DNA from: Escherichia phage vB_EcoM_DE15
Length of the DNA stretch: 53,998 nucleotides
Strand: one strand, 5' to 3'
Sequence record: NC_079184.1
Under the pieces are notes generated by a model. That model was not told where the DNA came from. It was given only the letters and a program-made list of their open reading frames with translations, and did no database searches. A program made the position numbers and the translations under genes. Below, piece after piece: positions 30,348 to 39,338 of the stretch (its first letter is position 1; the number at the start of each line of letters is the position of its first letter).

Positions 30348-30562
30348 ATATGGCGGTTATCACTCGATTAGATGCCCGCTCACGCAAGAACAATTCCTTC
30401 CAGATTCAAGATTTGGAAGGAAACATTTTGTGTGTGATTGAGGCAGTTTCTACCACAGAGAGCGACTGTGTTAAGTTAAAGCACGAGTCAAATCTGCGAC
30501 TCCACACCTCCGACAACATTCAAATTGTTAAGGGTAATGGAACTATTCTAAGGAAGAAATAA
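30338..30562 (+). CDS. Hypothetical protein (74 aa; alternative start at 30350)
   Basis: ORF between the terminase and portal genes. Confidence 0.5.
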   Translation: MDVNMAVITRLDARSRKNNSFQIQDLEGNILCVIEAVSTTESDCVKLKHESNLRLHTSDNIQIVKGNGTILRKK

Positions 30563-31878
30563 TGACTTCCAAGAAGAAAAACAATCTTTCTGTTAAAGTT
30601 GCAGATGGGTTAGAAAACCTTGTAACGGGGTTGGGCGGTCAGGCAGATAAGTCCACTTTTAACCAGTGGACTTTCTCAAACAAGAACGCGAACTATCGCG
30701 AACTTATGAACCGCTTCCGTGAGGATTGGGTGGCACAGAAAGTGTGTACCGTTATTCCTCAAGATATGACGCGTAAGTGGCGACATATTGATAGTGAAGA
30801 AGGACGCAAAGCGGATAAGAAACTTCGTATTCGTAAGCTGTTCCGTGAAGCATATCAATGGGCCAGATTGTATGGTACTTCATTTGTTCTGCTCGACCTG
30901 AAAGGTACGGGTAAACTCGATACGCCGTTGCGACTGGATAACTTGAAGACTGGATGTATTAAATCCATGAGAGTTATTGACCGCTCACGCCTATTTGCCG
31001 CAGGGACTATGGTTCTGGACCCTTTGAGTCCTCACTATGGTTTGCCAGAGTATTACACTTTGGCTGGGTATCCCGGCTATATCCATTACACTCGTTTCCT
31101 TCGGTTCGAGGGTACTGAACTACCGCTGTTCGAATTCCAACGTAACATGTGGTATTCCGATTCGGTACTTATTCCACTGCTGAAAACGATTGACCAATTC
31201 TATACAACTGCTGCTGCTGCTGCCAGCCTTGCCCAAGAAGCCACCATTGATGTGGTAACTGTTGAAGGCTTGCAATCTTTGCTTACATCACCGGAAGGTG
31301 AAGCTGCTGTGATGAAGCGCTTCAAACTTATGAAGCTGGCAAAGAGTATTTATAACGTCTTAATTCTCGATAACACTGAGAAGTATGACACCAAGTCAAT
31401 TGCACTATCTGGTGTGAAAGATTTGATTTGGGAATACTTGAAGATAGTTGCTGCCGCAGTTGGTATTCCGGCTACACGTTTCCTTTCTGCATCTCCAGAC
31501 GGTATGAATGCTACGGGCGAATCTGACCTCGTAAACTATATCGACTTGTTGACTGGCTTGCAGACTTCTGTGTTCGACCCTCGTTTAGATGTGGTAGACA
31601 AGATTGTCCAGGCGCACTTTGGCATTGAAGAATATAACTACGAATGGTTAGATATCTTCCCTGAATCCAATGTTGAGAAAGCGAAGCGAGCTAAAGATTT
31701 GGCATTTGCTGTTGACCTGCTGGTTAACAACGGTACTATCACTACCGAAGTTGCAAACGAAGTCATGTTCCATTCGGGCGTGTTCGGAACTTGTGACCTT
31801 GGCAAACCAAATCCTAATCCTCCTAACATCCAAAAGGGTAACGCAAGTGAAGCAAAACCAAAACCTGGTTCAGCTTAA
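30562..31878 (+). CDS. Portal protein (438 aa)
   Basis: Size and position between the terminase and scaffold genes. RBS AAGGAAG. Confidence 0.75.
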   Translation: MTSKKKNNLSVKVADGLENLVTGLGGQADKSTFNQWTFSNKNANYRELMNRFREDWVAQKVCTVIPQDMTRKWRHIDSEEGRKADKKLRIRKLFREAYQWARLYGTSFVLLDLKGTGKLDTPLRLDNLKTGCIKSMRVIDRSRLFAAGTMVLDPLSPHYGLPEYYTLAGYPGYIHYTRFLRFEGTELPLFEFQRNMWYSDSVLIPLLKTIDQFYTTAAAAASLAQEATIDVVTVEGLQSLLTSPEGEAAVMKRFKLMKLAKSIYNVLILDNTEKYDTKSIALSGVKDLIWEYLKIVAAAVGIPATRFLSASPDGMNATGESDLVNYIDLLTGLQTSVFDPRLDVVDKIVQAHFGIEEYNYEWLDIFPESNVEKAKRAKDLAFAVDLLVNNGTITTEVANEVMFHSGVFGTCDLGKPNPNPPNIQKGNASEAKPKPGSA

Positions 31879-31891
31879 CGACGAAGATACC

Positions 31892-32911
31892 GTGAATGAA
31901 GTAGTTTTGTTGAACGACAAGGCTACTTTAACGACCCGTCGTTTACGTGACTCTGGCGAAATGATTGCAGAATGCACCATCGCTCGTACTGGCATTATGC
32001 TGTACAAGGCGAAAGAACTTGGTGAAATTGCAAAACATCTGGACCCAGAATCTATTTGCCGTGTTCGTACCAAGCCGGAAGTATTATTTGACGAAGCAAC
32101 CATCGAAGGCTGTCGTTCAATCCCGGTTACTATCGGCCATCCGAAAAATGATGTTAACATCAAGAACAACAAAGAACTCCAGAAAGGGTTCATCGAAGGG
32201 CGTCCAGTTGCAGACGGTTCTTTCTTAGCTGCATCAATCGTTTTGAATGACGAGCAAGCTATTCGATTAGTTGATTCTGGTGTTGACCAAATCTCCTTGG
32301 GCCATAATGCTGAACTGGCTGTATCAGAAGATGATGAAGCCGACTTCGATAAAGTTCGCATTATCCCTAACCATGCTGCAATTGTTGTTCGTGGTCGTGC
32401 TCAGACTACTCGCATTGGTGACTCTGGTGAAGAGATTGCCATTGTTGATAAGGCAACCTTTGACGTTGTTGAAGCAGAGCGTGATGCAGCGCTTGACAAG
32501 ATTAGTGTCCTTGAGCAGAAACTTGCTGATGCAGAAACTGCACGACTATCCGATGAAGCCATTCAGGCTGAGGTAGACAAACGTGTAATTGCTCGTACAG
32601 CACTGCTTGTTGATGTGGCACGTCTTGGCGACGAGTTCTCCAACCTCGATTTCTCCGGCAAAACCGATGCAGAAATTAAGTTGGCTGTAGTTAATAAATT
32701 GCATGACAAGGATTTCAGCGATAAGAGCGAAGACTATATCTCCGCCCGTTTCGATGCGGCTCTTGAAGATTGCGATTCCATTACTTTGGGAGATGCCCTG
32801 AATCAGTCTATGCAATTCTCTGCTAAGAAAGATTCAGAAGCTCGTAAACCTAAAGTTTCTATTTCCGAAGAAGCTAACAAACGTCGTTTAGAACGCTTCA
32901 ACTCTTTATAA
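31892..32911 (+). CDS. Prohead scaffold/core protein (DUF2213-like from memory); start uncertain
   Basis: N-terminal RRLRDSGEMIAECTIARTGIMLY with an acidic coiled-coil C-terminal half. In frame with track ORF 31670-32911. GTG at 31892 is the first start after the portal stop. Confidence 0.6.
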   Translation: MNEVVLLNDKATLTTRRLRDSGEMIAECTIARTGIMLYKAKELGEIAKHLDPESICRVRTKPEVLFDEATIEGCRSIPVTIGHPKNDVNIKNNKELQKGFIEGRPVADGSFLAASIVLNDEQAIRLVDSGVDQISLGHNAELAVSEDDEADFDKVRIIPNHAAIVVRGRAQTTRIGDSGEEIAIVDKATFDVVEAERDAALDKISVLEQKLADAETARLSDEAIQAEVDKRVIARTALLVDVARLGDEFSNLDFSGKTDAEIKLAVVNKLHDKDFSDKSEDYISARFDAALEDCDSITLGDALNQSMQFSAKKDSEARKPKVSISEEANKRRLERFNSL

Positions 32912-32920
32912 GGTAAGACA

Positions 32921-33394
32921 ATGCCAAAGCAAGATTGGTCTATTAATACTGGTGAAGCATATGCAGGTGAACAATATGGCCTGGCTACCACCAACTCCCA
33001 GCGCCTGACCTACGTTGCCGAAGAAGAAATGGCAAACTTTGGTCTGGCTGTTGTTCAGGGCACGGCCTCTAATCAGGTTAAACCTGGTATTGAAGCAGAC
33101 GGCACTGTTCTGGGCATTACCATGCGCCAGATTAACATCGAATCAGCCACTCGTCCTGGTGACGGTACTGTTGCTATTAAAGTTGGCTGGCCTCTGGGCG
33201 TTATGCTGTCTGGCCCAATCATGGTCAAACTGAAAACCGCAATCACCGATAAAGACATTGGCGTATCTGACACTGGTCAATTTGGTGGCGTTGGTGCTGG
33301 CTATACTAAAGCAACCAACCTGACTGCACTTCGTTATCCGGCTGCTGCTGGTGATGTTGTTCCGGTAATGATTAACGTAGTCCCAAAGCCGTAA
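32921..33394 (+). CDS. Head decoration / capsid accessory protein, zero-frame product (157 aa)
   Basis: Strong codon bias. Lies between the scaffold and major capsid genes. Confidence 0.65.
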   Translation: MPKQDWSINTGEAYAGEQYGLATTNSQRLTYVAEEEMANFGLAVVQGTASNQVKPGIEADGTVLGITMRQINIESATRPGDGTVAIKVGWPLGVMLSGPIMVKLKTAITDKDIGVSDTGQFGGVGAGYTKATNLTALRYPAAAGDVVPVMINVVPKP

Positions 33395-33969
33395 CGCCAC
33401 CTCCAGCTCCTGCGGTGTCTGCTGTAGCAGGGACTGTAACTGCGGACGCATCTGCATCTGATGCCACTGTAACTGTAGACAAACTGTTTACGTTTGAGAA
33501 CTCTACAGCAACAGATTACAACTTCGCCGTTACTCCTGCTGTAGCTGGTGTTTCTGTGGCGGCAAACGGCACTGTGACTGTACTAAGTGCAACGACTACA
33601 GCCACTTCTGCGACAATCAAGGCAACGAATAAAACAGAGCCTGGTGTAACTGCATCTAAAGTGATTACGATTAAGCCTAAACCTCCTGCACCTACGGTGT
33701 CTGCTGTAGCTGGAGTTGTAACGGCTGATGCGTCTTCTACTGATGCCACTGTAACTGTAGACAAACTGTTCAAGTTTGGTAACTCTGCAGCAACAGACTA
33801 CACCTACGCTATTACGCCTCCTGTGATTGGCGTTTCTGTGGCTGCAAACGGTACTGTAACCGTCTTGAATGAGACAACTACCGATACCTCTGCCACGGTT
33901 AAGGCAACAAACAAAACAACCTCCAGCGTGACTGCAACTAAAGAAATTGCTATTACGCCGAAGTCTTAA
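32921..33969 (+). CDS. Frameshift-extended decoration protein with two Ig-like repeats (~349 aa)
   Basis: A -1 shift at 33382-33388 joins the 156 codons to AVTPPPAPAVSAVAG... The track's GTG start at 33415 has no RBS. Confidence 0.55.
33382..33388 (+). promoter_or_regulatory. -1 programmed frameshift slippery heptamer C_CCA_AAG
   Basis: X_XXY_YYZ in the zero frame, 4 nt before the stop. The -1 frame is open from 33376 to 33969. Confidence 0.6.
33400..33966 (+). repeat. Tandem 282-nt (94-aa) coding duplication, Ig-like domains
   Basis: Units at 33400-33681 and 33682-33966. Both start PPAP.VSAVAG.VTADAS..DATVTVDKLF. Confidence 0.85.
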
Positions 33970-33977
33970 GTTGTGAT

Positions 33978-33998
33978 GGCGCAATTAATAGTTGCGCC
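33978..33998 (+). terminator. Hairpin GGCGCAA-TTAATAG-TTGCGCC
   Basis: Perfect 7-bp stem with no T-run. Possible processing or attenuation site before the capsid gene. Confidence 0.35.
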
Positions 33999-34024
33999 TC
34001 ACCAAACAAAACGGATTAATTTAC

Positions 34025-35032
34025 ATGCCTAAGATGATTAAACTGGCGGACGGTTCTGAATTCGAACTGAACGACGCTATCACCCGTATTCAGGATTCTG
34101 GCACTGTTGTCCTGAATGACGACGATGCAGTATTCTTTCAACGCCAGCTTGAGTACATTGAAGCTCAAACTTACGACACTCTGTATCCAGAACTGGAAGC
34201 TCGTGCTGCTTTCGGTGTGGACACTACTGGTGGTGCTGGCGTAAACACTCTGACCTACCGTTCTTACAACCATGTTGGTAAAGCTCAGGTAATTAACGCC
34301 CGTGCAACCGACCTGCCTAAATCCAGCATTTCTGGTAAAGAATACAGTATCCCTGTTAAATCTGTTGGTACTGCATTCGACTACGATATTGATGAAGTGG
34401 CATCCGCTGCTGTTACTGGCCTCCCGCTGGAAACTCGTAAAGCAAATGCTGCTATTCGTGGTTACGAACAGTATGTTAACTCTGCTGCATGGTACGGCGA
34501 TAAAGCTAACGGCTTTGTTGGCTTCTTCGAAAACCCAGACATTACCAAAGCAACTGTTGCTCAGGGTGCTGGCGGTTCTACCAAGTGGGCCGAAAAGACC
34601 CCGACCGAAGTTATTGCTGACCTGACTGCTGCTGTGTCTGCAATGTATGCTTCTACTCTGAAAATCATGCGCCCGGACGAAATCTGGATGCCTGTCGAGC
34701 ATGAGCAGTACATCTTCAACACTGCACGTTCTGAGCAGTCTGACAAGACGATTGGTCAATTCTTCATTGACAACAACCAGTTCATCAACTCCCGCGATAA
34801 AATCAAGGGTCTGAACGCAATCAAAGGCCATGGCGATTCTGGTTCTGATTGCTTCGTCGTTGTTTGCCGCAATGCAATGGGCAACCGTACTTTCCGTCTG
34901 CGTGAGCCTCTGCCGCTGACCTGGCAACCAGTACAGCTTCATGGCCTGGTTTATGAAGTTCCTGGCCGTGGTCGTTTCGCTGGCTTCCAAGCGATGTATC
35001 CGGCAGCAATCTCCATCAACTCCGGCATCTGA
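34025..35032 (+). CDS. Major capsid protein (335 aa)
   Basis: Strongest codon bias in the window. Position after the scaffold and decoration genes. ATG at 34025, in frame with track ORF 33992-35032. Confidence 0.75.
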   Translation: MPKMIKLADGSEFELNDAITRIQDSGTVVLNDDDAVFFQRQLEYIEAQTYDTLYPELEARAAFGVDTTGGAGVNTLTYRSYNHVGKAQVINARATDLPKSSISGKEYSIPVKSVGTAFDYDIDEVASAAVTGLPLETRKANAAIRGYEQYVNSAAWYGDKANGFVGFFENPDITKATVAQGAGGSTKWAEKTPTEVIADLTAAVSAMYASTLKIMRPDEIWMPVEHEQYIFNTARSEQSDKTIGQFFIDNNQFINSRDKIKGLNAIKGHGDSGSDCFVVVCRNAMGNRTFRLREPLPLTWQPVQLHGLVYEVPGRGRFAGFQAMYPAAISINSGI

Positions 35033-38703: not shown

Positions 38704-39162
38704 ATGGCTTGTGAATTGCTTCAACGTGAATTCACAAACTCCAAAGGCGAAACAGTGTTAGTCGTTGTTCGACAATTGTCGGCTTCGGCTGCACTGTCTC
38801 TTCACGCGGAGTTGGTAAGCAAGTTAGGCTCACGAGTATTCCCATTCATCGAAGGTAAATATAACTTCGCTGATATTATATACTTGATGCAGCAAGTAGA
38901 GCATACCGTATTCACAGAATTGTTTAAGCGTGTTATCAGCATGCACTCGTCCATAGATGGACAAGAAATCAAACCTGCATTATATGATATGCAGTTCAAT
39001 GGCGAATTGATGTTGTCTTGCCATGTCTTTGCTTTCGTGCTCGAAGCAAACTTCCTTGATTTTTTCAAGCAAGGGCTCGAAATCAACGAACAGAGACGAT
39101 TGGAGGCGGAGGAAGCATCCAAGCTGGCAGAGCAGAAGAATTCGAGTCCGGAGACAGTTTAG
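38704..39162 (+). CDS. Tail assembly chaperone, zero-frame product (152 aa)
   Basis: Position before the tape measure gene. Contains a slippery site. Confidence 0.65.
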   Translation: MACELLQREFTNSKGETVLVVVRQLSASAALSLHAELVSKLGSRVFPFIEGKYNFADIIYLMQQVEHTVFTELFKRVISMHSSIDGQEIKPALYDMQFNGELMLSCHVFAFVLEANFLDFFKQGLEINEQRRLEAEEASKLAEQKNSSPETV

Positions 39163-39338
39163 TATCCCTGTTCCCCGACATAAAATATTTTCTGCATCGT
39201 CCTATAATCGAAGATAGTTCTCTCTGCAAGTTACGTGAATTGCAAGATGGAACCTATTCGATTATGGACTTATTGCTATTCCACGACATTCTCGATTTGC
39301 GTAAGAAACTCGAACCAGTAGATGAAGACAATGGCTAA
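38704..39338 (+). CDS. Frameshift-extended tail assembly chaperone (~211 aa)
   Basis: The -1 frame encodes ...FPDIKYFLHRPIIEDSSLCKLRELQDGTYSIMDLLLFHDILDLRKKLEPVDEDNG, with no start codon of its own before 39263. Confidence 0.55.
39060..39066 (+). promoter_or_regulatory. -1 programmed frameshift slippery heptamer T_TTT_TTC
   Basis: In-frame X_XXY_YYZ. The -1 frame opens exactly at 39060 (TGA at 39057-39059) and runs to 39338. Confidence 0.6.

Follow-up and report, generated by a model that had tools for sequence, protein, structure and literature searches.

The 53,998-nucleotide (nt) stretch of Escherichia phage vB_EcoM_DE15 analyzed here (NC_079184.1; referred to below as the window) carries, between its protease/scaffold and major capsid genes, a gene for a capsid cement/decoration protein. 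This gene ends with a slippery heptamer, C_CCA_AAG, and across its end a long open reading frame (ORF) lies open in the −1 frame. A sequence-only reading of the window had proposed that −1 programmed frameshifting at this heptamer appends two immunoglobulin (Ig)-like domains to the head decoration protein. The features that bear on this proposal are the following.

32921 to 33394, + strand: capsid cement/decoration gene, zero frame; product of 157 amino acids (aa), 16.3 kDa; PF22758, phrog_563.
33376 to 33394, + strand: overlap of the zero and −1 frames, 19 nt; the zero-frame stop TAA is at 33392 to 33394.
33382 to 33388, + strand: slippery heptamer C_CCA_AAG; in a slip the P-site codon would change from CCA to CCC and the A-site codon from AAG to AAA.
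33388 to 33969, + strand: −1 frame extension, 193 codons plus stop.
33388 to 33414, + strand: Pro-rich linker AVTPPPAPA, encoded 5′ of the GTG from which ORF callers start; codon changes between genera are synonymous and conserve the peptide.
33399 to 33680, + strand: Ig-like repeat 1 (DNA unit), a direct repeat of 282 nt.
33402 to 33446, + strand: predicted hairpin region, including the stem put forward in the sequence-only reading; unsupported as a frameshift stimulator.
33415 to 33417, + strand: GTG used as a start by ORF callers; it encodes an internal Val and is not conserved as a start.
33681 to 33962, + strand: Ig-like repeat 2, 282 nt, 77% identical in nt to repeat 1.

The cement ORF ends ...GTA GTC CCA AAG CCG TAA, and relative to its ATG at 32921 the heptamer stands in the X_XXY_YYZ register. 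The −1 frame is open from 33376 to 33969 (197 codons), reading RSPK AVTPPPAPAVSAVAG..., and the gene end, the register and the open −1 frame had all been described correctly in the sequence-only reading. Because the −1 frame opens at 33376 and the zero frame stops at 33394, any shift is confined to the 19-nt overlap, and the cement gene has no canonical in-register slippery heptamer other than C_CCA_AAG. In the ORFs of the window that are at least 100 aa long we found 26 in-register X_XXY_YYZ heptamers, among which the one at 33382 to 33388 has both the longest −1 extension (193 codons) and the shortest distance to the zero-frame stop (1 codon). In E. coli, C_CCA_AAG is highly shift-prone (Atkins et al. 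review, PMC5009743); a measured value for its efficiency is not given in the main text of PMC4066793.

Taken together with the comparative data described below, these sequence features indicate that the site at the end of the cement gene very probably yields, by −1 slippage, a minority of cement proteins with two extra Ig-like domains. The frameshift proposal was borne out in every sequence-level prediction that could be tested, with the exception of the stimulatory stem. Ribosomes on the cement mRNA would reach C_CCA_AAG one codon short of the stop, and in a minority of passages the P-site tRNA-Pro and the A-site tRNA-Lys would slip back by one base, the A-site slip taking place on the intrinsically shifty A_AAG, which would be read by E. 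coli's single tRNA-Lys. Translation in the −1 frame would then run through the AVTPPPAPA linker and two Ig-like domains of ~94 aa each, so that the main product would be the 157-aa cement protein and the minor one a cement-Ig-Ig fusion with a predicted length of 349 aa and a predicted mass of 35.2 kDa. The predicted junction reads ...NVVPK/AVTPPPAP..., and trypsin would cut there between ...INVVPK and AVTPPPAPAVSAVAGTVTADASASDATVTVDK. The cement body of the fusion would take its normal position on the capsid with the Ig-like domains projecting outward, giving a substoichiometric set of surface domains. That slippage occurs, the frequency with which it does so and the assembly of the fusion into virions are what we infer from the sequences. 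By analogy with T4 Hoc and with other phage Ig-like domains, those encoded here may act as weak adhesins.

The window is a Carltongylesvirus (Chaseviridae, subfamily Cleopatravirinae); the region from 32700 to 34100 is 96.9% identical to that of Escherichia phage vB_EcoM_JL1 and 86 to 95% identical to those of ~25 other phiEcoM-GJ1-like phages. For comparison we used 23 Cleopatravirinae loci from six genera, the window included. In 22 of the 23, C_CCA_AAG lies 0 to 1 codons before the cement stop codon (Carltongylesvirus, Suwonvirus PP101, Faunusvirus, Sabourvirus 4HA13, Loessnervirus Y2, SSEM1, Aioli, Farigoule, Mauresque and SNUABM_27), and in the exception, Proteus phage Myduc (Myducvirus), the heptamer is G_GCA_AAG and TAA comes immediately after it. 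All loci have a −1 frame that is open from the heptamer onward, at one and the same offset. At the slip codons there is no synonymous variation at all (CCA in 22/22 loci, AAG in 23/23). Only 6 of the 94 conserved degenerate codon columns lack synonymous variation, CCA and AAG being among them, and the mean synonymous diversity is 0.34. In an alignment that spans ~54 to 98% protein identity, CAAAG is the sole invariant block at the junction. The sequences themselves show the site, its frame relationship and selection on both, and, through models built from them, the folds described below.

ORF callers and several GenBank annotators have treated the −1 ORF as a separate Ig gene, which would start at GTG 33415 or be reached by termination-reinitiation after the cement stop and would make a free 184-aa protein of two Ig domains. 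The GTG is only 21 nt past the stop, a distance compatible with coupling. However, as the sequence-only reading had noted, it has no Shine-Dalgarno sequence: the sequence upstream of it, CCACCTCCAGCTCCTGCG, gives a best anti-Shine-Dalgarno duplex of +1.2 kcal/mol. In seven close relatives (ST32, GJ1, Mangalitsa, flopper, SA91KD, PYps16N and TH29), moreover, the codon is GTA or GTT. None of the 23 loci has an ATG near the beginning of the extension, and in none does a Shine-Dalgarno sequence precede the first GTG or TTG. That first GTG or TTG is codon 10 of the extension in the window, codon 52 in flopper, 56 in 4HA13, 73 in Aioli and 80 of 95 in SNUABM_27, so that a product begun at the last four would lose most of the domain. 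Annotators of the relatives have started the Ig ORF at no fewer than five different positions or have left a gap of ~330 nt unannotated, because no usable start exists.

The coding signal between the slip site and any possible start also argues against a separate gene. Over the first 15 codons after the slip, pairwise comparison gave 363 synonymous and 215 nonsynonymous differences in the −1 frame, versus 39 and 544 and 11 and 526, respectively, in the other two frames, implying translation of this stretch in the −1 frame before any possible start is reached. The linker, too, lies 5′ of the GTG, and its PPAP(T)V motif recurs as the linker between the two repeats. A free Ig protein would be without a capsid-binding part, and a promoter scan between the two ORFs of the window found none. 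We therefore consider it most unlikely that the Ig domains are made from a gene of their own. A terminator scan of the same interval found no U tract and no terminator. The SA91KD record places both a rho-independent terminator and a sigma-70 promoter at L024:2284-2402, which corresponds to ~33404 to 33522 of the window; neither was reproduced in the window.

The two tandem repeats of ~94 aa that had been noticed in the extension are real: they are 282 nt each and share 72% of their aa. The duplication was found by a direct-repeat search, Tandem Repeats Finder having overlooked it. An AlphaFold model of repeat 1 (AVTPP...IKPK), built from 16 sequences comprising both window repeats and the homologous repeats of four metagenomic proteins, is all-beta with nine beta strands and a predicted local distance difference test (pLDDT) score of 95.1. 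Its best Foldseek matches among solved structures were T5 pb6, a tail-tube protein (E = 4e-4), and the phi29 capsid protein gp8, both of which carry Ig-like domains, followed by invasin and Rib domains; among predicted viral structures it matched “Bacterial Ig-like domain,” BIG2, capsid and tail proteins. A Pfam search with the window repeat gave no match even at E ≤ 1 and hence none to Big_2 (PF02368). The absence of a Pfam match, together with the fold matches, means that the repeat is Ig-like by fold and not a Big_2 member by sequence. The appended repeats are thus predicted to adopt an Ig-like beta-sandwich, and the label “Ig-like” in the sequence-only reading holds at the level of the model.

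A homology search with the whole fusion was dominated by its T/A/V-rich Ig part and returned four matches, none of them a cement protein, which served only as sequences for the Ig model. The four metagenomic proteins (P0001 to P0004; 340 to 527 aa) carry two to four tandem copies of the window-type repeat, with domain E values of 1e-7 to 1e-15, and two of them also have a Pfam Big_2 domain (PF02368) elsewhere in the protein.

The carrier of these domains, the 157-aa gene product, is by its Pfam assignment and modeled fold a capsid cement/decoration protein, as its description as a head decoration protein had anticipated. It matches Pfam PF22758 Phage_cement (E217 gp24/Pam3 gp6) with E = 3.6e-17 and 63.3 bits, against a curated cutoff of 27, and its phrog_563 match is to a virion structural protein. 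Its AlphaFold model, for which 47 homologues were the input, has a pLDDT of 90.5, and the best Foldseek match is to cyanophage Pam3 8hdt_G (E = 6.5e-7, template modeling [TM] score of 0.73). Other matches were to T1 9kzj, HFTV1, FCWL1, XM1 7kmx, TW1 5wk1, E217 8frs and Pa193 9b40; the matched capsid chains are about the size of cement or decoration proteins, and the entries include cement, stabilizing or decorating proteins. By sequence, the cement protein had no match in the Protein Data Bank, and the relationship is visible at the fold level only. By homology, the protein would bind the outer capsid between capsomers. The capsid-bound base of the phi29 head fiber gp8.5 was also among the Foldseek matches, and the name and length of gp8.5 (~280 residues versus 118 for the base) indicate that something more can be attached to a base of related fold.

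What follows the site varies among the 23 loci. At least four unrelated domain types stand behind the same site and a Pro-rich linker, always in the −1 frame: those of the window, SNUABM_27, Farigoule (SprB/Ig_3) and Myduc (Ig_3/ig). Copy number varies as well: the window, JL1, SA91KD and flopper alone have a second Ig copy, and the rest of the Carltongylesvirus genomes, with a single copy, fall short of them by exactly 282 nt. In the PYps3T-type Yersinia phages (PYps3T, PYps4T and PYps16T) an internal deletion leaves a 50-codon extension without a complete domain, and C_CCA_AAG is kept. The sister subfamily Nefertitivirinae (Spp001, pAh6-C and VPs20) has neither the heptamer nor a −1 ORF, and there the capsid gene follows the cement gene after 15 to 72 nt.

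The PYps3T-type deletion and the lack of the whole module in Nefertitivirinae are what might be expected if an Ig-domain gene had decayed, leaving the −1 ORF as an untranslated remnant, and the heptamer were there by chance. Against this, the ORF is intact and in the same frame in 22 other loci, at cement identities down to ~54%, with substitutions that are mostly synonymous; exchange has placed other Ig-like domains, likewise intact, after the same site; the window's own domain folds with high confidence in the model; and the slip-site codons are frozen at their synonymous positions. We regard decay as an extremely improbable explanation.

In-frame fusions of a cement protein to an Ig domain were absent from the 50 cement homologues that we recovered from 1.84 billion representative proteins. 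Forty-nine of the 50 are 124 to 187 aa long, the exception being a marginal match to an 834-aa protein that covers only query residues 124 to 148. Out-of-frame arrangements occur in more distant lineages. In the metagenomic locus L029 (2148 to 2651; cement identity of 42%), the gene ends GCA AAA AAA TAA, which forms A_AAA_AAA, and two Ig_3/I-set domains (E = 6e-16) are encoded in the −1 frame. Since the Pfam match to the first of them begins at profile position 15, the zero frame seems to supply the beginning of that domain. The A7 run could reflect an assembly error or transcriptional slippage. In the metagenomic locus L032 (458 to 850; cement identity of 39%), G_GGA_AAG stands five codons before the stop, with a −1 ORF of 130 codons. 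The Myduc-like cement gene at L031:1501-1995 has an in-frame stub, ...FTKVAAPVEP, and no Ig domain, and it ends ~70 nt before the capsid gene; L031 may be a collapsed version of the Ig module. The stub resembles the −1-frame linker of SNUABM_27 (PKVAAPVLP).

The A7 run of L029 bears on whether RNA polymerase, and not the ribosome, might slip. A polymerase slipping at CCCAAAG would add one base to some transcripts and give the same fusion as the outcome, a course that is plausible at the A7 run of this distant relative. Productive transcriptional slippage requires runs of ~7 or more A or T, however, and the site in the window has only C3 and A3. What is conserved, moreover, is the X_XXY_YYZ register, which matters to tRNA re-pairing and not to a polymerase. 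A change at the RNA level is therefore scarcely credible here, and slippage by the ribosome is the explanation that we retain.

The recurrence of the arrangement suggests a more general, and more tentative, idea. It is quite possible, even if we lean slightly toward doubting it, that the slip site and the Pro-rich linker form a conserved “docking cassette” for unrelated Ig-like domains, which are exchanged time and again and always lie out of frame; that the solution has recurred in distant cement lineages with C_CCA_AAG, G_GCA_AAG, A_AAA_AAA and G_GGA_AAG; that recoding is the general route by which this decoration-protein family displays adhesion domains on the capsid at low copy number; and that in-frame fusion is selected against, full occupancy being harmful.

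One part of the sequence-only reading fared less well. It had drawn a 6-bp stem, reaching to 33438, downstream of the heptamer. The stem can indeed be drawn, with arms TCCTGC and GCAGGG at 33408 to 33413 and 33427 to 33432, so that it ends at 33432, short of 33438. The minimum-energy fold instead pairs 33411 to 33416 with 33433 to 33438 and 33418 to 33422 with 33427 to 33431. The hairpin region has a minimum free energy of −26.4 kcal/mol and shuffled sequences average −24.5 (z = −0.65), so that it shows no extra stability; none of the 12 pairs in the consensus fold of 11 relatives has a compensatory change. The hairpin begins ~19 nt past the heptamer, and other genera that retain the slip site have an unrelated sequence there; a role of the stem as a stimulator is therefore unsupported. 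Frameshift sites of this kind commonly, though not universally, have a stimulatory element, either a hairpin or pseudoknot 5 to 9 nt downstream or a Shine-Dalgarno-like sequence upstream. Upstream of the heptamer we saw no such sequence by eye, no scan having been run. The sole conserved context is A_AAG itself and a stop codon 0 to 1 codons downstream.

Several points weigh against frameshifting as the source of a virion fusion protein. The lack of a supported stimulatory element implies that its efficiency could be low. A small amount of independent initiation might occur in the window and in those few relatives that have a GTG 9 codons past the slip site. The deletion in the PYps3T-type phages implies that the Ig domain is dispensable for propagation and is an accessory module. 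Finally, the searchable literature holds no report of a junction peptide or of a 35-kDa virion species for any Chaseviridae phage.

The predicted arrangement has counterparts in well-studied phages. Work by Fraser et al. in 2006 is said to have described, for T3 gene 10A/10B and for the major head protein of Lactobacillus phage A2, a −1 frameshift that appends a C-terminal Ig-like domain. As in those two systems, the shift predicted here would fall near the 3′ end of a structural gene and yield mostly a short form and, less often, a long one with an exchangeable surface Ig-like domain that frameshifting keeps substoichiometric. Unlike in those systems, the carrier is a cement protein (PF22758) and not a major capsid or tail protein, the slip site is 0 to 1 codons from the stop, there is no supported stimulatory RNA structure, and the Ig domains are two in tandem.

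With lambda G/GT (G_GGA_AAG) the site shares the X_XXA_AAG type of heptamer that exploits E. coli tRNA-Lys and a conserved position; there, however, the product is a nonvirion assembly factor and the slip site is well upstream of the stop, whereas the fusion considered here is a predicted component of the virion surface. Like T4 Hoc and phi29 gp8.5, the fusion would combine a capsid-bound base with an outward, dispensable module, but Hoc and gp8.5 are single in-frame polypeptides whose occupancy is set by binding sites, and occupancy here would be set by the efficiency of recoding. Pam3 gp6 and E217 gp24 resemble the cement protein in Pfam family, in being the best fold match and in the gene order protease-cement-capsid, and the likewise matched T1 entry 9kzj has chains of 152 to 157 residues, the size of a decoration protein. 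In contrast to the window fusion, the matched capsid chains have 118 to 211 residues, and the 49 full-length homologues stay within the size range given above.

Diverse phages have independently turned to frameshifting as a means of adding C-terminal Ig-like domains, so the strategy is an established one, as the sequence-only reading had said (Atkins et al. review, PMC5009743). Mechanism and purpose thus belong to a known class; what is new here is the cement-protein carrier and the clade. None of the 23 GenBank records examined annotates a frameshift or a joined coding sequence. In the searchable literature, the subscription papers that describe phiEcoM-GJ1 and Y2 aside, we found no prior report of a Chaseviridae cement frameshift or of a virion proteome that would resolve it, and an earlier mention is possible.

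Recognition of the site would correct annotation across the subfamily, since ~76 of the 107 GenBank phage records that contain this cement gene, those with at least 60% identity, appear to be Cleopatravirinae, and it would show that the strategy of adding an Ig domain by frameshift includes cement/decoration proteins as well as major capsid and tail proteins. The loci also make up a natural series for studying the function of capsid Ig domains: the number of domains ranges from zero to two, there are four types of domain, some phages carry deletions, and the sister subfamily has no module at all. In practical terms, the site would offer a ready-made low-copy display position, both for coliphages used in therapy and for the group's phages of Erwinia and Pectobacterium.

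The genes around the cement gene are as follows.

30562 to 31878: portal gene.
31847 to 32911, + strand: head maturation protease/scaffold gene; Pfam DUF2213, phrog_530; start taken from the annotation of relatives (L001 to L003, where the gene is annotated at 648 to 1712).
34025 to 35032, + strand: major capsid protein gene; Pfam Major_capside, E = 1.4e-48; phrog_264.

Farther downstream, a tail assembly chaperone gene (38704 to 39338; phrog_11820, E = 2.5e-75) contains an in-register T_TTT_TTC at 39060 to 39066. The −1 frame is open there for 90 codons, to 39338, just within the tape-measure ORF, and the extension matches phrog_4364. This is a classic −1 frameshift of the G/GT type and the second recoding site of the window.

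One database record stands out among the relatives. GenBank PP952070.1, “Staphylococcus phage Pel53” (host Staphylococcus hyicus), is 88% identical in DNA to these coliphages across the query, with 91% identity in the cement protein, and its host label looks doubtful.

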